Positions 10,086-61,947 of a DNA stretch of 64,000 nucleotides are shown here, one piece after another. The position numbers and the translations under genes are program-made. Every line of letters starts with the position of its first letter. The first letter of the stretch is position 1. The notes below the pieces were generated by a model, which ran no database searches, was not told where the DNA came from, and was given only the letters and a program-made list of their open reading frames with translations. Source of the stretch: Patescibacteria group bacterium (GTDB taxonomy: Bacteria; Patescibacteriota; Microgenomatia; UBA1400; MFAQ01); contig CALRDV010000002.1 in the NCBI GenBank assembly GCA_943355005.1, positions 131,826 to 195,825 of the forward strand. Reading direction: 5' to 3'.

Positions 10086-10127
10086 AACTTCAGTTTAAAC
10101 CATCTGGGCGGACCTGTCCGCCGGTAG

Positions 10128-10212
10128 GCGGAGGGGGCGGGATTCGAACCCGCGGTATCTTGCGATACGGAGGTTTAGTAAACCTCTGCACTCGACCACT
10201 ATGCGACCCCTC
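10128..10212 (-). tRNA. Type II (long variable arm) tRNA with atypical anticodon loop, reading ACU with a canonical 5-bp stem. Identity uncertain: Ser/Leu-like, or a pseudogene.
   Basis: The reverse complement is GGAGGGGTCGCATAGTGGTCGAGTGCAGAGGTTTACTAAACCTCCGTATCGCAAGATACCGCGGGTTCGAATCCCGCCCCCTCCG. Acceptor, D-arm, long variable arm and T-arm are good. The anticodon stem GAGGT/ACCTC encloses loop TTACTAA. Confidence 0.55.
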
Positions 10213-10217
10213 CACGG

Positions 10218-15694: not shown

Positions 15695-16109
15695 GGGGAC
15701 GACAGGATTCGATGGGATAGTACGTTTACAGTTGCAAGCCTCCTTTGGTAATAGGAGTCAAAAAGACCAAAAAATACTTGTCAATAAAGAAGACAAAATA
15801 CTTGGTTTCATCTCTAGTGGAGTTAAATCCCTTTTTGGTGAAGTCAAATCTTCCGCTCCCGTTTACGCTTTTGCCTAAATAGTAGCTTTGAAGACGTCTT
15901 GAGAGCCAGCGGATCCCGGGCTTCTCACAAGGCGAAAAAATACCGGATTGAATGCTTCAGGTTTGATTTAGGCCTGAGGACTAACTTTTCTAAATCGACC
16001 ATAAGGTGTTCTTGTTTGCCTGAAGCTTTATGGAAAATCGGCAAACTACGCTTGTAGACTCTGTAGGCTTAATATTTCAGACGAGAGTTCAATTCTCTCC
16101 GTCTCCACA
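15695..16109 (+). ncRNA. ssrA: tmRNA (SsrA), ~413 nt
   Basis: The 5' end GGGGACGACAGGATTCGATGGGA pairs with the 3' end CGTCTCC-A-CA to form a tRNA-like acceptor stem. The 3' T-arm is GAGAGTTCAATTCTCTC. The internal tag reading frame ends ...SSAPVYAFA followed by TAA TAG. It lies immediately downstream of smpB and is followed by a terminator hairpin. Confidence 0.8.
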
Positions 16110-16113
16110 TAAA

Positions 16114-18343: not shown

Positions 18344-19024
18344 TTATTCCTGATTATTTTGATCATCATGCTCTTCAATTAATTGTGAAATTACCGCCAC
18401 CACTTTGTCAGGGTAAGCTATAGACTCAAAAGTAAAAGCCGAAGATTCATCTCTCGCGTTCGGAACATTCTGTTTTGAGGCAGTTTCTACAATCACATCA
18501 CCGTAATTAAAGAAACTGGCAAGCATCCCTCTTTGAGAATAATTAACATCTTCAATTTTGTTCAGTTGACATACGTTGACATTTTTACTCAGTAGCCCCA
18601 CAAAATCAACATCTATTATTCTCTCATTTGTCACTATGTAAACATTGTAAAACCACATTAAAAAATTCTGCAGTCCGTAAAAAGCCAGAACCATATACCA
18701 AAGCATTGTCATACCAATCAGAGCATTTCCGTCCAACATTTTAATAAAAGGAAATTCTTTCCAAAACATCGGTATAAATAATGAAAAAGAAACTACTGTT
18801 ATCCACCCCAGATTCCTAATTATATGTTTCCTACCCAAAATTACGATTTTTTCATCTTCTTGTTGAGATTCAAACTTTGACCATTCAGGAATCGCCACCA
18901 AAGATCCCCACTGGCTACGAGGACATGATCCTAAAATCTTTTCCACATCATCAACCACATTCTCTGATTTCTTGGCTTTAAAAATCTCCGGCATACCTAA
19001 TTGTACCAAACACCACGTCGTCAT
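18344..19024 (-). CDS. YdbT/YdbS-like bacterial PH (bPH_2) domain membrane protein
   Basis: A two-TM hairpin (RNLGWITVVSFSLFIPMFW ... MLWYMVLAFYGL) followed by a domain containing IVTNERIIDVDF and ending GDVIVETAS, as in bPH_2. Confidence 0.55.
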   Translation of the reverse strand: MTTWCLVQLGMPEIFKAKKSENVVDDVEKILGSCPRSQWGSLVAIPEWSKFESQQEDEKIVILGRKHIIRNLGWITVVSFSLFIPMFWKEFPFIKMLDGNALIGMTMLWYMVLAFYGLQNFLMWFYNVYIVTNERIIDVDFVGLLSKNVNVCQLNKIEDVNYSQRGMLASFFNYGDVIVETASKQNVPNARDESSAFTFESIAYPDKVVAVISQLIEEHDDQNNQE

Positions 19025-19320
19025 TGCGAGACTCGACTTTAGGTCGGCCGTGGCAATCCCACACCACTGTCATTCCCGACCCGCTTCGCCATAGCTTCAG
19101 CGAGGCGAGCCTGAGTGGGCCGCTGGTACCCGAAGGGGGAAATCCCCCTCCACTCGTCATTGCGAGGAGTGAAACGACGTGGCAATCCCACACCACTGTC
19201 ATTCCCGACCTGATCGGGAATCTATATAGATAAATACCAATTTTTAACACCATGACTACTAGCACTTAGAGTTACGAGTGAGTACGGTTTTTGGCGGGCT
19301 TCGAAACGCGATAAAAAAAT
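19017..19320. repeat. Intergenic cluster of dispersed palindromic repeat elements (composite of at least four repeat types)
   Basis: Two copies of cgtcattgcgag-[hairpin]-gtggcaatccc, two copies of (cac)tgtcattcccgacc(tgatcgggaatc), one copy of gagtgggccgctggtacccgaagggggaaatcc, and one copy of agttacgagtgagtacggtttttggcgggcttcgaaac. The same units recur at more than 15 other places in the window. Confidence 0.8.
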
Positions 19321-38080: not shown

Positions 38081-39136
38081 ATGGCTATTCAACAGCATCC
38101 ACTACCACAGGACATTAGCTCCTATCGCTTCCGCCTAATTGGCGATATGACTATCAAGCAGTTTGCCTCTCTTGGCATCTGTATTGTTTTAGCCATTATT
38201 GCGTACAGTATGCCCCTCCCTTTCTTTTTTAAATACCCTTTAGCCTTTATGTTTATCGTACTAGGCGTAGGTATGGCTTTTGTCCCCGTTCAAGGACGTT
38301 CTCTGGATGTTTGGATTCTTGCTTTTATCCGTTCCATTTATTCTCCGACTCAATATACATGGAAACGTTCTGAAGAAACTGTTTCAAATGAAATGTCTAT
38401 GAAGAGTAATGGAGTGGGTACTCAAGCAGTTACAAACGCCAGAATCGAACTCACCCAAGCTCCCGCTTCAGTCCCCAATACTCCATCTGTCTCCATCACC
38501 CCTCCTGCATCAGAGCCAAAAACAGAAGAGAGACTCGAAATAACTCCTCCACCATCCGTCATTGCGAACCCGCCTTCAGAGGGTGTGGCAATCCAGGCTA
38601 CAAATCAAACCGAAGTCCCAGTTCCTGAATTAGGAAAAATTATAACTTCCTTAGCCCCAGTAATACCTACCGAGCCGGAAAAACCCACCCAACCAATAAC
38701 ACTTACTGTCATTCCGGGCTTGACCCGGAATCCATCTGGTACATCAGACGCCCAATCGACACCATCCGTCATTGCGAGAGACCTACCCGCTGTGGAAGGA
38801 GCACGGCAATCTAGTTTACCAGCCACCCCATCAACTAACCCTCCCCAGCAAACCCAGCTCCCCATCCCCTACACCCCCACTACCCCAAACACTCTCGTTG
38901 GACTTACGTTGTCTCCGGAAGGTAAAATTTTGGACGGGGTCATGGTAGAAATTCAGAGAAACGGTCTAACTTCCAGAGCCACCAAAAGTAACAAACTTGG
39001 CCAATTTATGTTCGCCAGACCTTTGGAAAATGGCTTGTATCAAATCCTCGCCGAAAAAGATTCTTTTACCTTTTCACCATACTCTTTAGATCTTACCGGC
39101 ACTATTATCCGACCTCTTAAAATCCAAGCACAATAA
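38081..39136 (+). CDS. PrgI/VirB3-like membrane protein with C-terminal carboxypeptidase-regulatory-like domain. It contains in-frame palindromic repeat insertions.
   Basis: The N-terminus (YRFRLIGDMTIKQFASLGICIVLAIIAYSMP ... AFMFIVLGVGMAFVP) has the two-TM PrgI-like pattern. The C-terminus (LTLSPEGKILDGVMVEIQRNGLTSRATKSNKLGQFMFARPLENGLYQILAEKDSFTF) resembles a CarboxypepD_reg beta-sandwich. The central Pro/Thr linker includes VIPGLTRNPSGTS and PSVIARDLP, which are encoded by copies of the dispersed repeats. Confidence 0.45.
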   Translation: MAIQQHPLPQDISSYRFRLIGDMTIKQFASLGICIVLAIIAYSMPLPFFFKYPLAFMFIVLGVGMAFVPVQGRSLDVWILAFIRSIYSPTQYTWKRSEETVSNEMSMKSNGVGTQAVTNARIELTQAPASVPNTPSVSITPPASEPKTEERLEITPPPSVIANPPSEGVAIQATNQTEVPVPELGKIITSLAPVIPTEPEKPTQPITLTVIPGLTRNPSGTSDAQSTPSVIARDLPAVEGARQSSLPATPSTNPPQQTQLPIPYTPTTPNTLVGLTLSPEGKILDGVMVEIQRNGLTSRATKSNKLGQFMFARPLENGLYQILAEKDSFTFSPYSLDLTGTIIRPLKIQAQ

Positions 39137-47229: not shown

Positions 47230-48681
47230 TTACGTGTATAACGCTTGTTTTAGTGCATTAACTTTTCGCCTGATATCCACGTTTTCTTCTATCTGCACTT
47301 TCATTTTTTCGACCGCGTGCATTACTGTTGTATGATCTCTCCCGCCCATCAGTTCGGCAACTTCGGTCAAATTTAGGTCGAGGATATCTCTCAAGATATA
47401 CATCGTAATGTGTCTAGCTACCACCAAGTCCGCTTTTCTACTGGTACCCAAAAGATCTTTATTTCGGAAATCAAAGTATTTGGCGACGGTAGAAATTACT
47501 TTGAGTGGTCTGACTTTAATATCCTTCACTGTGCTTGATGGTAGTCCTAGGTTCTTCTGTACCATTTCTTTGGTCAGCACTACCCCGTCCAAGTTTGCTG
47601 TTGCCGCCAACTGTCCAAAAGTTCCCTCCAGTTCTCTGGCATTCGTAGGGAAGCTGGTAGCCATAAGCTCAAACGCGCCATCGTCAACATCCACTTTAAG
47701 ATCAAGTGCTCTCTGTTTGAGTATTGCGAGTCTCATTTCATAATCAGGTAAGCCAATATCCACCATCATTCCTCCGAGGAATCTACTACGGAGCCTTGCT
47801 TCCAATCCCACAATCTCTTGGGGCTTGCGATCGCTCGTCATAATTATTTGTACTTGCCTATTCGTCAATTCATTGAAAGTGTGGAAGAACTCTTCTTGTG
47901 TTGAATCTTTTCCTCCAAAAAACTGTACATCGTCGACGAGAAGAGCTCCCACTTGGCGATACTTCTTCTTAAAAGCGTCAACAAGTTTAGATTTAAAAGA
48001 ACCGACCAGGTCGTTGGTAAACTGTTCGCTGGTAATGCACATAATTTTTCCAACTCCTTTTTTGACCAGTTCGTGCCCTACTGCATGCATCAAGTGAGTC
48101 TTCCCTACTCCAACCCCTCCATATATAAATAGAGGATTATGTCTCGTCCCGGGGAAATCTACCACTGCCTTGCCGGCAGCGAAAGCCAACCTATTCGAAC
48201 TTCCGACCATATAAGATTCAAAGTGATATCTGGGATTAAGATTTGTGTTGGTAGACTTGCTATCTTCTTGTGGTGCGAAGAGACCGATGTTTGTCTCATT
48301 AGGTTTTGCGCTTTCAAAATCCTTTTTCGGGTATTTTGTCTCTTTGTTTTGCTCTATTACAAGCAGTGCAATGTCACATCTTTTTCCTGAAATTTTCTCA
48401 GCAGACTGCTTTATGATGCTGTAATACTTGGTTTCAACTGTGTGACTCAGAAATGCCGACGGAGTTACTAGTTCAAGGAGTAGTCTTTCTTCATCAATGG
48501 AAGTAATAGAACGTAAATAACAAGGCTTGATAAAGCCCGCAAAACTTGCCGGAGTCATAGATACACCAAGCTCTCCGCAAATACTATGCCATAATTTCTC
48601 ACTGTCCATACCGTCATTCTCAACACTTATCCACATTTTTACAACCCCCAATTTACCCAAAAAGACTACTACTATCCACAT
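47230..48681 (-). CDS. dnaA: Chromosomal replication initiator DnaA. The true start is probably the internal ATG at ~48609.
   Basis: AAA+ Walker A GGVGVGKTHLMHAVG, Walker B LLVDDVQF, and the C-terminal DNA-binding domain (ADLVVARHITMYILRDILDLNLTEVAELMGGRDHTTVMHAVEKM). The first 24 codons of the track ORF overlap a DnaA box. Confidence 0.9.
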   Translation of the reverse strand: MWIVVVFLGKLGVVKMWISVENDGMDSEKLWHSICGELGVSMTPASFAGFIKPCYLRSITSIDEERLLLELVTPSAFLSHTVETKYYSIIKQSAEKISGKRCDIALLVIEQNKETKYPKKDFESAKPNETNIGLFAPQEDSKSTNTNLNPRYHFESYMVGSSNRLAFAAGKAVVDFPGTRHNPLFIYGGVGVGKTHLMHAVGHELVKKGVGKIMCITSEQFTNDLVGSFKSKLVDAFKKKYRQVGALLVDDVQFFGGKDSTQEEFFHTFNELTNRQVQIIMTSDRKPQEIVGLEARLRSRFLGGMMVDIGLPDYEMRLAILKQRALDLKVDVDDGAFELMATSFPTNARELEGTFGQLAATANLDGVVLTKEMVQKNLGLPSSTVKDIKVRPLKVISTVAKYFDFRNKDLLGTSRKADLVVARHITMYILRDILDLNLTEVAELMGGRDHTTVMHAVEKMKVQIEENVDIRRKVNALKQALYT

Positions 48682-48755
48682 CAGTTCTCTTCCGTTGCTT
48701 TTCTAGGGTATAATACTAAACAGTCACGTGATTCTCACGCAACAAACAAAACCCT

Positions 48756-48893
48756 ATGCCAAAAAGAGTATACCAACCAAAAAAAGTCAAACGTATTAGA
48801 AAGCACGGTTTTCGTATCAAGATGGCCTCAGCTGGTGGTCGAAACGTAATCAAACGTCGCCGAGCCAAAGGTAGAACCAAGTTAGCCCTCTAA
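48756..48893 (+). CDS. rpmH: 50S ribosomal protein L34
   Basis: Hand translation gives [45 protein letters not shown], which matches the L34 consensus (...THGFRARM...GR.V...RR.KGR..L). The stop appears to overlap the rnpA ATG (TAATG). It is too short for the supplied ORF track. Coordinates are +/-1. Confidence 0.7.
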
Positions 48894-49240
48894 TGCCTCT
48901 TCCGGCCATAAACCGGCTTCCCCTTCGATTTGAAAGAGATCGCCTTACACGTGAGGGTCGTTCATTCCACACCCGTCACTTTACCCTCGTCACCGCACCC
49001 TTTGACTCGCCAGAGCTGAAAGCGACGGCGAGCCGCTTCTCCATCCTCCTCTCGAAAAAAACCGCCCGCCTAGCCGTCGACCGCAATCTCATTAAACGCC
49101 GTACCTCCGCCATCCTGGCCCAAATACTCCTCTCCTTCCCTCCGGCCGATTACCTAATCATCCCCAAACGCTCCGTTCTGGACACCCCCCTCCCCGAACT
49201 TCTCTCCGACCTCTCCACTGCCATCCCCAAACTCAGATAA
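48893..49240 (+). CDS. rnpA: Ribonuclease P protein component
   Basis: 115 aa, basic, with LLSKKTARLAVDRNLIKRR (the RnpA RNR-like motif). It is in the conserved rpmH-rnpA order. The gene is conspicuously GC-rich (~57%) relative to its surroundings. Confidence 0.8.
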   Translation: MPLPAINRLPLRFERDRLTREGRSFHTRHFTLVTAPFDSPELKATASRFSILLSKKTARLAVDRNLIKRRTSAILAQILLSFPPADYLIIPKRSVLDTPLPELLSDLSTAIPKLR

Positions 49241-49242
49241 TG

Positions 49243-49277
49243 TTGTCATTCCCGACCCGATCGGGAATCCATTCTCT
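49243..49277. repeat. Dispersed palindromic repeat copy (gtcattcccgacccgatcgggaatcc)
   Basis: Located immediately after the rnpA stop codon. Stem TTCCCGA/TCGGGAA. Confidence 0.7.
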
Positions 49278-54242: not shown

Positions 54243-54282
54243 ATTCGTCTTGTCATTCCGGGCTTGACCCGGAATCCATCCC
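54243..54282. repeat. Dispersed palindromic repeat copy (gtcattccgggcttgacccggaatcc variant)
   Basis: Immediately after the rnhA stop. The stem has compensatory substitutions (TTCCGGG/CCCGGAA) relative to the TTCCCGA/TCGGGAA variant. Confidence 0.7.
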
Positions 54283-57946: not shown

Positions 57947-57995
57947 AACCGTCATTGCGAGGCTCGACTTTAGGTCGGCCGTGGCAATCCAGGGT
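57947..57995. repeat. Dispersed palindromic repeat copy (cgtcattgcgaggctcgactttaggtcggccgtggcaatcc)
   Basis: Near-identical to the copy at 19017-19062. It is followed by a bidirectional terminator hairpin (AACAGCCACT-TGA-GTGGCTGTTTTTTG) at ~58008-58035. Confidence 0.7.
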
Positions 57996-58073: not shown

Positions 58074-60221
58074 TTATTCTTTCGGCCAATTTGCGGATAT
58101 TAACAGCCCTTCCTGGGGGAACACTTCCTTCCACGCCGACTCTGTCACAAAAGGGACAAAAGGGTGAAGCATTATTAAGAAAGACTTGTAGCCGTTTTTA
58201 AGAAGTTCAAGTGATACTTTCCCAGATTTGCAATTCTCGATAGATTCATCACAGAACCAGTGCCAAAACTCATTATAAACAGACTCCGCTGCCAGACCTA
58301 CCTTGTTAGCTTCCAATAATCTAGTTAACTCCTTTTGAACCTCTTGTAGTTTAGTTTTAAAATTCTCATTGCCTTCTCCTGTAAATTCGTCATTGCGAGG
58401 AGCGGAGTGACGTGGCAATCTCACTCCATCCACAATTTCCTGACCTTCACTCTTGGAATCGCCTTCTCTAGGGGTTTCCATCTCTGTAATAAATCTTCCG
58501 GCGTTCCAGATTTTGTTTCCAAAATTTCTCATTCCTCGAACTTTATTTTCCCCTGTATTACTATCTTGCCCCGGAGTTGTGCTCATCACCAATGCCATTC
58601 GAAGCGAGTCGGCACCATATTTATCTGTAAGTTCAAGTGGGTTGATTACATTACCAATACTCTTGCTCATCTTTCTGCCTTGCTCGTCTCTCACCAATCC
58701 GTGCAAATAAACGCATTTGAAAGGAGACTTGCCTGTCATATATATTCCTAACAACATCATCCTCATTACCCAGAAGGGGAGAATATCATAAGCTGTCTCC
58801 ATGACGTCAGTGGGGTAGTATACGTCGAAGTCTCCTTGCTTACTTGTCTTGAGTGTCACCACTGGCCACTGTCCGGAAGAGAACCACGTGTCAAAAGTAT
58901 CTGTTTCTTGAGTGTATCCTTTGCCCGGGCTCATTTCACTCACCACAAATTCTGTTTTAGTCTCATCTTTGTACCAAACCGGCATTCTAATTCCCCATAC
59001 GATTTGTCTGCTTACATTCCAATCTCTAAGATTGCTCAACCAATGTCTTAAGATTTTGTCGTGCCCGGATCCCATAACTACGGACTCTTCGGTATCTAGA
59101 GATTTCAGGGCATTTTCAGCCAAGGTCTTAACCTTTATAAAGAATTGTTTCATTGGCAAAGGTTCAATTGTTCGATGACAGCGATAACAAGTGCCCACAC
59201 TGTGCGTATATGGCTTTGTCTCTATTAGAGCGCTGCCTAAGTCGGTAACTATCTTTTCTCTGGCTTCACTTACATTCATACCTTCATAAAGCCCTGCATT
59301 GGCCGTCATTTTCCCTTTTGTTCCAATTACCTGGTGATTCAAAACAATCTCATCCATATTCCAACCTTGTCGCACAGCCACATCCCAATCGTTCTGGTCG
59401 TGTGTTGGTGTAATTTTTACGGCTCCGGTGCCGAACTCCATATCCACCATTGCATCTCCGACAATAGGGATTTCCCTGCCCACCAGTGGTAGTGTTACTT
59501 TCTCCCCAATTAAATTTTTGTATCTTGGGTCTTCCGGATTTACAGCCACAGCCACATCTCCAAGCATTGTTTCAGGCCTTGTGGTGGCTACCGAGAGCTT
59601 TCCGTAATTAATCTTGTATATCTTATCTTCTCTCTCCTCGTGGTCCACCTCAAGTTCGGAATATGCCGTTCCACACTTCGTACAGAAATTTACCAGCCTG
59701 ACTCCACGATAGATCAATCCATCTTCATGCAGTTTTATAAAAGTCTTGGTTACTTCCTTTACAATTTCCGGGTCGAGCGTAAATTTGTATCTACTCCAAT
59801 CTGCACTGGCTCCCAATTTCTTCACTTGGTCGATAGCAACTCCGGAATTTTCGTGTACATAATCCCAAATCATTTTGTAGAGAGTGTCTCTGTCAAAATC
59901 AAATCTACTTTTTCCTTGCTTGGCTAATTTTTTCTCAAACACAAACTGAGTTTCAATCCCTGCATGATCTGTACCCGGCAGCCAAAGAACTGCTTCACCC
60001 TTCATCCTATGAAAGCGTACCAAGATGTCCTCTATAGTTACGAACATTGCATGACCAACGTGTAAGGGGTCATTCGCGTTAGGAGGAGGCATAATTACAG
60101 TAAATGGTTTTTGACCCGTTTTTTTTACATCATCTCCCGACGGTGGGGTAAAAGCTCCACTCTTTTCCCACTCAGCATAAATCTCTGCTTCGGTTTCTTT
60201 GTGCTCGTAATTTTTATTCAT
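58074..60221 (-). CDS. valS: Valyl-tRNA synthetase (short form) with an in-frame palindromic repeat insertion near the C-terminus
   Basis: PPPNANDPLHVGHAMFVTIEDILVRFHRMKGEAVLWLPGTDHAGIETQ (HIGH region, ValRS-like), and KMSKSIGNVI. The residues GVRLPRHSAPRNDEF near the C-terminus are encoded by a copy of cgtcattgcgaggagcggagtgacgtggcaatc (~58385-58430). Confidence 0.8.
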   Translation of the reverse strand: MNKNYEHKETEAEIYAEWEKSGAFTPPSGDDVKKTGQKPFTVIMPPPNANDPLHVGHAMFVTIEDILVRFHRMKGEAVLWLPGTDHAGIETQFVFEKKLAKQGKSRFDFDRDTLYKMIWDYVHENSGVAIDQVKKLGASADWSRYKFTLDPEIVKEVTKTFIKLHEDGLIYRGVRLVNFCTKCGTAYSELEVDHEEREDKIYKINYGKLSVATTRPETMLGDVAVAVNPEDPRYKNLIGEKVTLPLVGREIPIVGDAMVDMEFGTGAVKITPTHDQNDWDVAVRQGWNMDEIVLNHQVIGTKGKMTANAGLYEGMNVSEAREKIVTDLGSALIETKPYTHSVGTCYRCHRTIEPLPMKQFFIKVKTLAENALKSLDTEESVVMGSGHDKILRHWLSNLRDWNVSRQIVWGIRMPVWYKDETKTEFVVSEMSPGKGYTQETDTFDTWFSSGQWPVVTLKTSKQGDFDVYYPTDVMETAYDILPFWVMRMMLLGIYMTGKSPFKCVYLHGLVRDEQGRKMSKSIGNVINPLELTDKYGADSLRMALVMSTTPGQDSNTGENKVRGMRNFGNKIWNAGRFITEMETPREGDSKSEGQEIVDGVRLPRHSAPRNDEFTGEGNENFKTKLQEVQKELTRLLEANKVGLAAESVYNEFWHWFCDESIENCKSGKVSLELLKNGYKSFLIMLHPFVPFVTESAWKEVFPQEGLLISANWPKE

Positions 60222-60228
60222 ATTTATA

Positions 60229-60310
60229 TCGTCATTCCCGACCTGATCGGGAATCTATATAGATCGTCATTGCGAGTTTCGGTATTCCGAACCGCGGCAA
60301 TCCAGGTTAA
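60229..60310. repeat. Two adjacent dispersed palindromic repeat copies upstream of valS
   Basis: gtcattcccgacctgatcgggaatc followed by cgtcattgcgagtttcggtattccgaaccgcggcaatcc. A third copy is at ~60415-60450, and a perfect 12-bp inverted repeat (CCCTCGTCAATC...GATTGACGAGGG) is at ~60322-60362. Confidence 0.7.
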
Positions 60311-60557
60311 TAATTTAAAAAACCCTCGTCAATCTCCATTATAAAGGGGATTGACGAGGGCCAATTAGGCGGTACCACCTCGCATTATACTTAATTCGTT
60401 TGGGTTCTACTTCCATTGTCATTCCCGACCTGATCGGGAATCCATAAATAGTTTCCTCCCTAGCTCAGAGGTGACTAATCTCTTCATCGCTCTCTTGCTA
60501 ATTCTATCACAATCGAATAAAATAACCCATAGAGTTTGAACAAAAGGAGATATTAAT

Positions 60558-60849: not shown

Positions 60850-61947
60850 TTAAACCACTCCCAAACTAGGATCAGGCTTCAAATCCAACCCTGTTTCCTC
60901 AGGCCTTAGAATTGCCGCGGCCCCCACCATCGCCGCATTATCTCCACAATACTTCAGTTCAGGCACGAAGAAATTGATTCCATATTTTTCAACTTCATTT
61001 CTTAAAGCCTCTCTTAGTTTCTTGTTTGCCGCCACTCCTCCGGCGAGCAATACACTTCTTGGTTGATACTTCTCTACGGCGAGCATTGTCTTCTTTACTA
61101 GAACCTCGGTCACTGCCTCACTAAACTCCCTCGCCAACAGATTCCTTTTAAGTTCGTCATTCCGAGCGACCGGCACACCGTGACGGGAGTCGAGGAATCT
61201 CACTCCACCTTTTACGTCATTCCGGGCTTGACCCGGAATCCAGGTTTTAAAATCTTCACTCTCCACCATTCGAGCAATCGCCGCCTTAATTCCCGAAAAA
61301 CTCATATCCAAACGTGGGTCATGGATCAGTGGTCTTGGAAGTTTAAATACATTTTTATTTTTATTCCATTCTTCTTCAGTGATTTTACTCGCCGCCTTAT
61401 CCATCTCCGGCCCACCCGGATAGGGCAGACCCAGTATTCTGGCTGCTTTATCGTAAACCTCACCAGCAGCATCATCCCGAGTTCCCCCAATCCACGTCCA
61501 TTTTGTAAGGCTTTCCAAAAGAATCAAATCTGTGTGTCCACCACTTACCACAAGTCCCACCGCCGGCAATTCCGGCACATTATTCTCCCCAATCCAGTTC
61601 GCCAACACATGTGCAGTCATATGGTTTACTCTTAGCAGAGGTTTCTTCCATGACCAAGCCAAAACCTTTGCCGTCTCGACACCAATTAACAAACTTCCCA
61701 TCAAACCCGGACCATAACTCACCGCAACAGCATCTACTTCGGTGTCTACTAGGGCTTCGATAATTACGGGGATAATACTTCTGATTTGCTCACGTGCCGC
61801 CACTTCAGGTACGATTCCACCATATTTCTGATGCATTTCCATTGAACTGGCCACGATATTCTTAATTACTCTCACTCCATCACCAAAATTCTCCACTACA
61901 GCCGCAGCAGTTTCATCACAGGTACTTTCAATAGCCAAAACTTTCAT
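60850..61947 (-). CDS. tsaD: tRNA N6-adenosine threonylcarbamoyltransferase TsaD (Kae1/YgjD family) with an in-frame ~30-aa palindromic repeat insertion
   Basis: MKVLAIESTCDETAAAVV ... GGHT ... and the C-terminal GGVAANKKLRE. Residues IPGQARNDVKGGVRFLDSRHGVPVARNDE are encoded by tandem repeat copies at ~61150-61255 (gtcattccgagcgaccggcacaccgtgacgggagtcgaggaatc + gtcattccgggcttgacccggaatcc). Confidence 0.85.
   Translation of the reverse strand: MKVLAIESTCDETAAAVVENFGDGVRVIKNIVASSMEMHQKYGGIVPEVAAREQIRSIIPVIIEALVDTEVDAVAVSYGPGLMGSLLIGVETAKVLAWSWKKPLLRVNHMTAHVLANWIGENNVPELPAVGLVVSGGHTDLILLESLTKWTWIGGTRDDAAGEVYDKAARILGLPYPGGPEMDKAASKITEEEWNKNKNVFKLPRPLIHDPRLDMSFSGIKAAIARMVESEDFKTWIPGQARNDVKGGVRFLDSRHGVPVARNDELKRNLLAREFSEAVTEVLVKKTMLAVEKYQPRSVLLAGGVAANKKLREALRNEVEKYGINFFVPELKYCGDNAAMVGAAAILRPEETGLDLKPDPSLGVV

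Follow-up and report, generated by a model that had tools for sequence, protein, structure and literature searches.

An oriented CGTC-tagged hairpin repeat carried in frame by the valyl-tRNA synthetase gene of a Patescibacteria group bacterium

A 64,000-nucleotide stretch of contig CALRDV010000002.1 (assembly GCA_943355005.1, Patescibacteria group bacterium; positions 131,826 to 195,825 of the forward strand), referred to here as the window, carries short palindromic repeats, one of which is translated within the gene for valyl-tRNA synthetase (ValRS). This copy very probably belongs to a dispersed, oriented hairpin repeat of the CGTC-tagged superfamily of repetitive extragenic palindromic (REP) elements; its DNA appears to be constrained, the peptide it encodes a passenger, and the element would act as single-stranded DNA (ssDNA). 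Intragenic REPs of the CGTC type are already known from the Rickettsia palindromic elements (RPEs); the finding falls within this kind and is not a new class. From this genome 74 kb were available, namely the 64-kb window and the next 10 kb of the contig (L004).

The repeat copy in valyl-tRNA synthetase

The product of the host gene (Table 1) was identified as a class I ValRS by its Pfam domains (tRNA-synt_1, 5.6e-117; Anticodon_1 at residues 622-714) and by comparison with the Thermus thermophilus enzyme (1GAX; E = 3.9e-150); its best named relatives are Candidatus Collierbacteria, of the candidate phyla radiation (CPR)/Patescibacteria. The unit inside the gene is 43 nt long including its conserved 3′ tail CTCACTCCATC. 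The string GTCATTGCGAGGAGCGGAGTGACGTGGCAATC is located at 58389-58420 on the plus strand, and its reverse complement, read in the frame of the ValRS open reading frame (ORF), gives GVRLPRHSAPRNDEF (residues 599-613); DGVRLPRHSAPRND corresponds to residues 597-610 of the 715-aa protein. Five of the six reading frames through the unit are open.

An R2-type repeat (defined below) in frame in ValRS had been proposed in a first-pass annotation of the window, and the ORF frame, the Pfam identity and the pattern counts bear this out. It had been placed near the C-terminus; more exactly, the unit occupies the first inter-helix loop of the anticodon-binding helical bundle, and the 102 residues downstream of it agree with the roughly 100 in-frame residues given there. 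As to the palindrome, the ValRS copy is an imperfect, degenerate one (fold z = -1.6), in which an outer stem of 5 bp, ATTGC/GCAAT, is followed by 14 nt of interior sequence.

An AlphaFold2 model of the window ValRS (84 homologs; mean predicted local distance difference test score, pLDDT, 89.3; predicted template modelling score 0.86) placed residues ~583-614 in a low-confidence coil (block pLDDT 51-64) without predicted secondary structure, flanked by helices 558-582 and 615-637. According to the model, the insert is a floppy surface loop that joins the first two helices of the anticodon-binding bundle. Throughout the clade, ValRS (683-715 aa) is shorter than the T. thermophilus enzyme of 862 aa: it ends near residue 707 of the latter and therefore lacks the C-terminal part, which includes the coiled-coil domain.

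One hundred and twenty ValRS homologs were aligned by using MAFFT. The first-pass annotation had raised the case of a peptide conserved in unrelated taxa without the repeat; no such conservation was found, about 110 of the 120 orthologs being without any such peptide and T. thermophilus ValRS showing gaps opposite the insert segment. Most homologs (typically 683 aa) have about 10 residues between the helix ...NKIWNAGRY..E and the helix starting GEKDxEF, where the window ValRS is some 20 residues longer. The insertion site is a loop of hypervariable length, the sole such part of the anticodon-binding helical bundle. The nearest relative overall (L001, 79 % identity; an independent assembly from another sample, GCA_964357975) carries the same unit at the same place, and in L002 (77 % identity), the nearest of those that lack the insert, the DNA shows an empty site. 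Derivation of the ValRS peptide from an inserted repeat, and not from an ancestral segment, is supported by these alignments. They show that an oriented hairpin repeat evidently entered a permissive ValRS loop in the common ancestor of the window genome and L001 and was then inherited.

The same loop has been used repeatedly. Four different unit types were found in it, one shared by the window and L001 and one each in L125, L126 and L127 (Table 1), always with the CGTC strand opposite the coding strand, and repeat-type peptides, read at the protein level only, occur in the same loop of homologs P0082, P0097 and P0114. The recurrent hits mark this loop as a place where a class I synthetase naturally tolerates insertions.

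Between the window and L001 the ValRS genes share 74 % nucleotide identity, and 46 % at third codon positions. Within the insert, 42 of 43 nucleotides are identical, including 14/14 third codon positions, and the sole change is non-synonymous (A/V). The insert is the best-conserved 44-nt segment of the 1965 in the gene alignment and was kept across ~20 % protein sequence divergence. A further orthologous pair was provided by a sense R2 unit in rnpA of L002 and L125 (Table 1), which is missing from the window rnpA (48893..49240) and from L126 rnpA. This insert is identical at 43 of 46 positions. No 46-nt stretch of the gene scores higher, and 10 overlapping windows out of 270 share this score; two of the three differences fall in the hairpin loop. 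In both alignments, ValRS and rnpA, the orthologous intragenic copy is the best-conserved DNA stretch of its host gene. Because synonymous sites are conserved far above the host genes, the constraint would lie on the DNA element, with the peptide in ValRS most likely carried along as a passenger.

Repeat units and family assignment

The units begin with a 5′ CGTC or TGTC tag, followed by the arms ATTCC.../...GGAAT (R1) or ATTGC.../...GCAAT (R2), a C directly after the palindrome and a short tail. All 15 window units begin with CGTC or TGTC, the ValRS unit with CGTC. R1 units, with the stem ATTCCCGA/TCGGGAAT of 8 bp and a 5-nt loop, fit the stem definition of CGTC-tagged REPs; the R2 unit of ValRS falls outside it (8-9 bp starting with two A-T pairs, 4-5 nt loop). 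The tails read CCA(GG), CCAT, CTAT or CTCACTCCA, in line with the short 3′ tail of CGTC-tagged REPs, and the ValRS tail CTCACTCCATC is common to TsaD and to units in L001, L002 and L125. R2 units measure 27-54 nt overall, and their interiors are highly variable (89 distinct among 161 units). At least 120 loci, spread over more than 15 phyla, carry the exact R2 head and end. An Rfam search returned no family covering the repeats; only tRNAs and transfer-messenger RNA (tmRNA) scored.

Elements of this superfamily were redefined in 2025 as NTS/Ssn-related motifs (SRMs), CGTCATTCCCGCGMAVGCGGGAATCYRG (Chenal et al. 2025, PMC11893778). R1 is identical to the consensus of NTS (CGTCATTCCCG...GGGAATC) over the first 11 nt and in GGGAATC, and differs in the inner stem and loop; the shared positions take in the three bases that precede the palindrome and the C that follows it. 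Compared with CGTCATTCCCGCGMAVGCGGGAATCYRG, the R2 unit of ValRS has ATTGC/GCAAT in place of ATTCC/GGAAT and keeps CGTC and the following C. There are good grounds, in the shared tag, arms and tail, for placing the units in the broader CGTC superfamily.

A repeat scan of the window gave six matches to the R2 pattern GTCATTGCGAG-N(6-36)-GGCAATC and four to the R1 pattern GTCATTCCCG...CGGGAATC, both against 0.00 expected from shuffled sequences (100 shuffles for R2). The copies that the first-pass annotation had reported on both sides of ValRS were recovered as the units at 57950-57989, 60230-60255 and 60265-60302, and a further R1 unit lies at 60417-60442 (Table 1). In this genome at least 9 of 19 units are translated (one in ValRS, two in TsaD, three in the PrgI-family ORF and three in the DUF8128/NUDIX ORF). 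The three units of the PrgI-family ORF are in sense and read SVIANPPSEGVAIQ, VIPGLTRNP and SVIARDLPAVEGARQS, which shows that units of either orientation are translated. The two-unit segment of TsaD is missing from TsaD of L001-L003, where a short loop reads RSQMSDLRFQMSDE or RSQFSEANPQISEE.

Table 1. Repeat units and their host genes in the window and in related loci (L004 continues the window contig beyond position 64000)
Feature	Position	Strand	Remarks
ValRS, host gene	58074..60221	-	715 aa, intact, KMSKS motif present
R2-type CGTC-tagged unit inside ValRS	58388..58430	+	CGTCATTGCGAG-GAGCGGAGTGACGT-GGCAATC + tail TCACTCCATC; minus-strand reading encodes DGVRLPRHSAPRND
R2 unit, inner CGAC/GTCG hairpin	57950..57989	+	intergenic, between L25 stop codon and ValRS stop codon; nested hairpin fold, z = -2.9
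R1 unit CGTCATTCCCGACCTGATCGGGAATC	60230..60255	+	8-bp stem, 5-nt loop; 9 nt upstream of ValRS start codon
R2 unit, inner TTCGG/CCGAA hairpin	60265..60302	+	upstream of ValRS
R1 unit	60417..60442	+	intergenic; fold z = -3.3
R2-like unit (61155-61199) and R1 unit (61215-61240)	61155..61240	+	in frame inside TsaD (60850..61947, -); encode ...IPGQARNDVKGGVRFLDSRHGVPVARNDE...
Three units in PrgI-family ORF (38081..39136, +)	38557-38593, 38707-38732, 38767-38811	+	in frame, sense, in P/T/S-rich linker
Intergenic three-unit cluster	19019..19222	+	R2 19019-19058, R2 19155-19187, R1 19197-19222
R1 unit	49244..49269	+	directly after rnpA
R1 unit, CCGGG variant	54251..54276	+	after RNase H gene
Three units in 1224-aa DUF8128/NUDIX ORF	L004 3368-3684		same orientation as window units; ORF 1143-1159 aa in relatives
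One unit in 340-aa ORF	L004 1615-1639		same orientation as window units
Sense R2 unit in rnpA of relatives	L002 21320-21353; L125 20030-20063		SSLRGGKADVAISLHQ
ValRS loop unit, L125			R2 with long inner hairpin; GLPRHAGLINQTTTPRNDD
ValRS loop unit, L126			R1; TGTCATTCCGGGCTTGACCCGGAATCC (GFRVKPGMT)
ValRS loop unit, L127			TGTCATCCTCGCGGAGGCGGGGATCC (DPRLREDD)

In TsaD of L001 (7550-8614) and in the ValRS loop of L126, a 7-nt unit (CAGATGT/CAGATCT/CAGATTT) occurs in runs, which encode peptides like SQMSDVRSQ and SSQISDIS. These runs appear to be a second kind of short repeat in the same permissive loops of relatives; none was found in the window.

Further features of the window were recorded. 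A type IV secretion system (T4SS)-like cluster on the plus strand (24494-45720) contains about six ORFs of 113-122 aa, of which the two scanned are T4SS pilins (PF18895). The PrgI-family ORF belongs to the same cluster, as do an ATPase of the TraG/VirB4 type and an M23 peptidase of 999 aa that bears an L25/TL5-like domain; no Pfam match was obtained for three ORFs of 580-991 aa within or beside the cluster. ARAGORN predicted a tRNA-Ser with anticodon ACT (A34) at 10127-10213 on the minus strand (Rfam 55 bits), beside tRNA-Ser TGA, GCT, CGA and GGA; an A34 tRNA-Ser would be unusual in bacteria. The tmRNA (15695-16110, plus strand, 414 nt) has a predicted tag of 32 residues, VNKEDKILGFISSGVKSLFGEVKSSAPVYAFA, which is long for a tag peptide, and a near-identical tag was predicted in the related loci L164 and L208.

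Strand polarity, possible role and alternative readings

All 19 units of this genome (15 in the window, four in the next 10 kb) lie on the plus strand of the window, the host and neighbouring genes lying on either strand. The GC skew of the window is strong and uniform (-0.19). At third codon positions it is unusually strong (-0.36), whichever way the genes point, so that the asymmetry is a property of the DNA strand and not of transcription. The coding share of the C-rich strand is inconsistent, at 46 % in the window and 64 % in selected loci, a figure biased by locus selection. The genes dnaA (minus) and rnpA (plus) are divergent in a classical oriC-type arrangement (47230-49240), yet the skew is negative on both sides.

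Metagenomes were scanned for the tail typical of the lineage; this gave 120 loci, and strands were counted in those of at least 3 kb. In 191 of 201 units the CGTC strand was the C-rich strand, and 81 of 82 loci agreed with this rule (p = 3e-23). The ratio of C-rich to other strand was 84:3 for seed units, 63:5 for other R2 units and 44:2 for R1-like units. About 46 % of units in the metagenome sample (100/217) lay well inside ORFs of at least 150 aa. A function of the units at the RNA level was rejected: they are sense and antisense to genes and yet on one DNA strand, which points to action on DNA, most plausibly ssDNA, rather than RNA.

A candidate for such an action is the SsnA type of nuclease. 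SsnA is a 94-aa GIY-YIG nuclease that binds and cuts NTS solely as ssDNA and solely on the CGTC strand; three bases before the palindrome are needed for cutting and the C after it for binding (PMC11893778). By analogy, the units would act as ssDNA, probably as recognition sites of a small Ssn-type GIY-YIG nuclease. Since the published enzyme binds and cuts the CGTC strand alone, as ssDNA, the orientation that exposes this strand as ssDNA template in replication would be purged. The ValRS copy survives because five of the six frames of the unit are open and because its 11-14 additional residues lie in a disordered loop at the protein surface, and the high intragenic share would follow from a compact genome with little intergenic space.

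Genes of this nuclease type were found next to R2 units in other loci. In L012 and L119, R2 units directly flank a full-length GIY-YIG ORF of 98 aa (PF01541; matches 1e-13 to 1e-16). In L141, a Collierbacteria-type locus, only 13 nt separate an R2 unit from a GIY-YIG N-terminus, (V)KRIPCIYIMSNEYNTTIYIGVTSN, downstream of it. Comparison of L141 (1-140) with L248 (3690-3830) gave, after the same terminator of an identical 78-aa gene, R2 plus GIY-YIG in the former and unrelated sequence in the latter, a presence/absence polymorphism of a repeat-plus-nuclease module. A full-length L141 gene was not reached through the neighbouring 78-aa gene, as the sole longer contig of a near-identical strain (L248) is without the module and the more distant homolog in L249/L250 stands in a different context. 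Contigs of ~1 kb hold many of the GIY-YIG homologs, which would follow if their flanking repeats break assemblies.

Taken further, the units of Collierbacteria-type CPR genomes might be strand-polar ssDNA sites of the chromosome and not just selfish debris. At least 95 % would lie on the C-rich strand because a strand that an Ssn-type nuclease can cut is not tolerated on the template exposed in replication; selection would keep their sequence even within essential genes, with synonymous sites frozen and the amino acid free to change; and the near lack of intergenic space would force them into permissive protein loops, so that loops like the inter-helix one of ValRS become recurrent landing pads. 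We offer this extension tentatively and consider it rather unlikely. If true, the units would be a polar element of genome architecture, with a logic like that of Chi or KOPS, written through coding sequence.

Several observations weigh against a strand-polar, Ssn-type ssDNA element. The minimum-energy DNA fold of the ValRS copy is not a canonical hairpin; GGAGTGA pairs with the tail TCACTCC (z = -1.6). Conservation of the two orthologous copies could stem from gene conversion by unseen copies elsewhere. Neither an insertion mechanism nor a target-site duplication was definable; for the latter, loops with and without the unit have diverged too far. As to the leading strand, no GC-skew switch was found at dnaA/rnpA or anywhere in the 74 kb, tRNA gene orientation (12:12) was uninformative, and no rRNA signature was present in any locus. 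Across all phyla the strand rule is weak (19 vs 9 at |skew| > 0.1); it is lineage-specific and not general to R2 units. No GIY-YIG gene, such as one of the small single-domain cd10448 type, was detected in the 74 kb read of this genome (from a contig of at least 255 kb) or in ~100 kb of syntenic relatives by a regular expression and a hidden Markov model (HMM) from 120 homologs (window, L001-L004, L040, L125-L127), and in L141, whose taxon was inferred solely from GC content and repeat type, the gene ends at the contig end. The published SRM search string HGTCWYN(0-2)YYVSBRHN(0-5)WNVSBRGN(0-2)RNCYNB, derived from 29 genomes of four phyla (PMC11893778), gave no match on either window strand and none in seven R2-type units searched singly. 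Filing the units as SRMs by this string was therefore rejected, and their membership in the SRM class is unproven from sequence.

Among the alternatives, the one that survives best treats the units as selfish mini-transposons, inserted strand-specifically at the replication fork by a transposase, like the 'peel and paste' elements of IS200/IS605, so that the strand lock is an insertion bias without function. The uniform orientation relative to GC skew would be expected of such elements, as would the L141/L248 polymorphism and the strong difference in copy number between close relatives (nine units in this genome against one or two in the same syntenic 20 kb). An insertion bias leaves the synonymous-site conservation above the host gene unexplained, however, and no transposase domain was found among the 24 window ORFs scanned with Pfam, the remaining ORFs being unscanned and no Y1-transposase HMM having been run. 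The leading strand is usually G-rich. Under this convention the CGTC strand, which the Ssn enzyme recognises, is on the leading-strand template, opposite to the expectation for an IS608-type element. This placement is in keeping with purging and not with an insertion, as in IS608, into the template of the lagging strand. We regard the selfish reading as possible, if on the doubtful side.

Exaptation is improbable. On this reading the insert was kept because its peptide makes ValRS capable of something new, for instance through a loop that binds a partner or contacts tRNA; some Rickettsia RPEs have been proposed to be exapted in this manner. Repeated hits to one loop by at least four unit types, retention of the insert across ~20 % protein divergence and a host domain that binds the anticodon (Pfam Anticodon_1) speak in its favour. 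However, the lineages carry different peptides (LPRH..PRND, RVKPGMT, DPRLREDD, LPRHAGLINQTTTPRND) in a low-pLDDT loop without predicted secondary structure, most orthologs function without the insert, and the substitution pattern suggests selection at the DNA and not the protein level.

An ancestral, functional part of ValRS that resembles the repeat by coincidence or convergence can be given hardly any credence: the near-identical segment in the two closest genomes and the intact ORF would agree with it, but the peptide is missing from most orthologs and from T. thermophilus ValRS, the 12-nt head and 7-nt end recur in six copies against none expected, the 14/14 synonymous sites are conserved with the sole change altering an amino acid, and other unit types place unrelated peptides in the same loop. 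A chimeric ValRS, joined by the assembler through a dispersed repeat, is conceivable in a metagenome assembly, where such repeats break contigs and leave many repeat-flanked GIY-YIG genes on ~1-kb pieces, but it is almost certainly not the case here, as both flanks of the unit are collinear and in frame with orthologous ValRS, the same unit stands at the same place in the independent assembly GCA_964357975, and the gene order is kept in five relatives.

Comparison with known systems

As defined by Di Nocera, De Gregorio & Rocco (2013), CGTC-tagged REPs begin with CGTC or else with TGTC or CCTC, and they include Neisseria dRS3 (CGTC-1) and Rickettsia conorii RPE-6 and RPE-4 (CGTC-1 and CGTC-4); intragenic copies were noted, and no dedicated transposase (PMC3733652). 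They share with the units described here the unpaired 5′ CGTC/TGTC tag, an A-T-starting stem (ATTCC.../...GGAAT), the short CCA-like 3′ tail, dispersal in many copies with no dedicated transposase nearby and translated intragenic copies. Their stem of 8-9 bp and loop of 4-5 nt differ from the R2 unit of ValRS, which has a 5-bp ATTGC/GCAAT outer stem, mismatches and a variable inner mini-hairpin. They are predominantly head-to-head dimers, whereas the present units are single, in one orientation and head-to-tail with their neighbours.

The NTS-ssnA-NTS architecture published for Neisseria resembles the R2 units that directly flank small GIY-YIG genes in L012, L119 and L141. The intragenic share differs: 2 % of NTS are intragenic in N. 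meningitidis, against ~46 % of the units here (PMC11893778). A term search of the same article returned no lagging strand or skew, and no use of 'replication' or 'leading' about strand bias. Neither PMC3733652 nor PMC11893778 appears to describe the strand lock, the intragenic share of ~46 % or copies that are better conserved than their host gene, and a literature search returned no earlier CPR description beyond these two, a weak negative as most subscription journals were not covered. Like the units, the REP/BIME elements mobilised by RAYT (Y1) and the IS200/IS605 elements are short oriented hairpins recognised as ssDNA, and the orientation of IS200/IS605 follows the replication fork. Those systems have a GTAG tag and a Y1 (HUH) transposase; here the tag is CGTC and the candidate enzyme a GIY-YIG nuclease.

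Rickettsia palindromic elements were reportedly described in frame in protein genes by Ogata et al. (Science, 2000) and Claverie & Ogata (2003). The likeness is close: a palindrome is translated in essential proteins, in surface loops, where it is tolerated rather than required, and copies are also intergenic. The ValRS insert has the features of an in-frame RPE-type element, as have those of TsaD and the PrgI-family ORF. RPE-1 measures ~100-150 nt against 43 nt for the ValRS unit, and its host is an alphaproteobacterial endosymbiont and not a member of the Patescibacteria/CPR. To our knowledge, neither recurrent use of a single ValRS loop nor a strand lock has been described for RPEs. The phenomenon known from Rickettsia thus recurs in a CPR genome that is unrelated and of ultra-small size, and the genes affected belong to the core of translation, namely ValRS, TsaD and, in relatives, the RNase P protein. 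The near-absolute strand polarity, independent of transcription, and the nucleotide conservation of old copies give a clean signal on how CGTC-type REPs spread, and they bear on the role of the newly described Ssn single-strand nucleases outside Neisseria.

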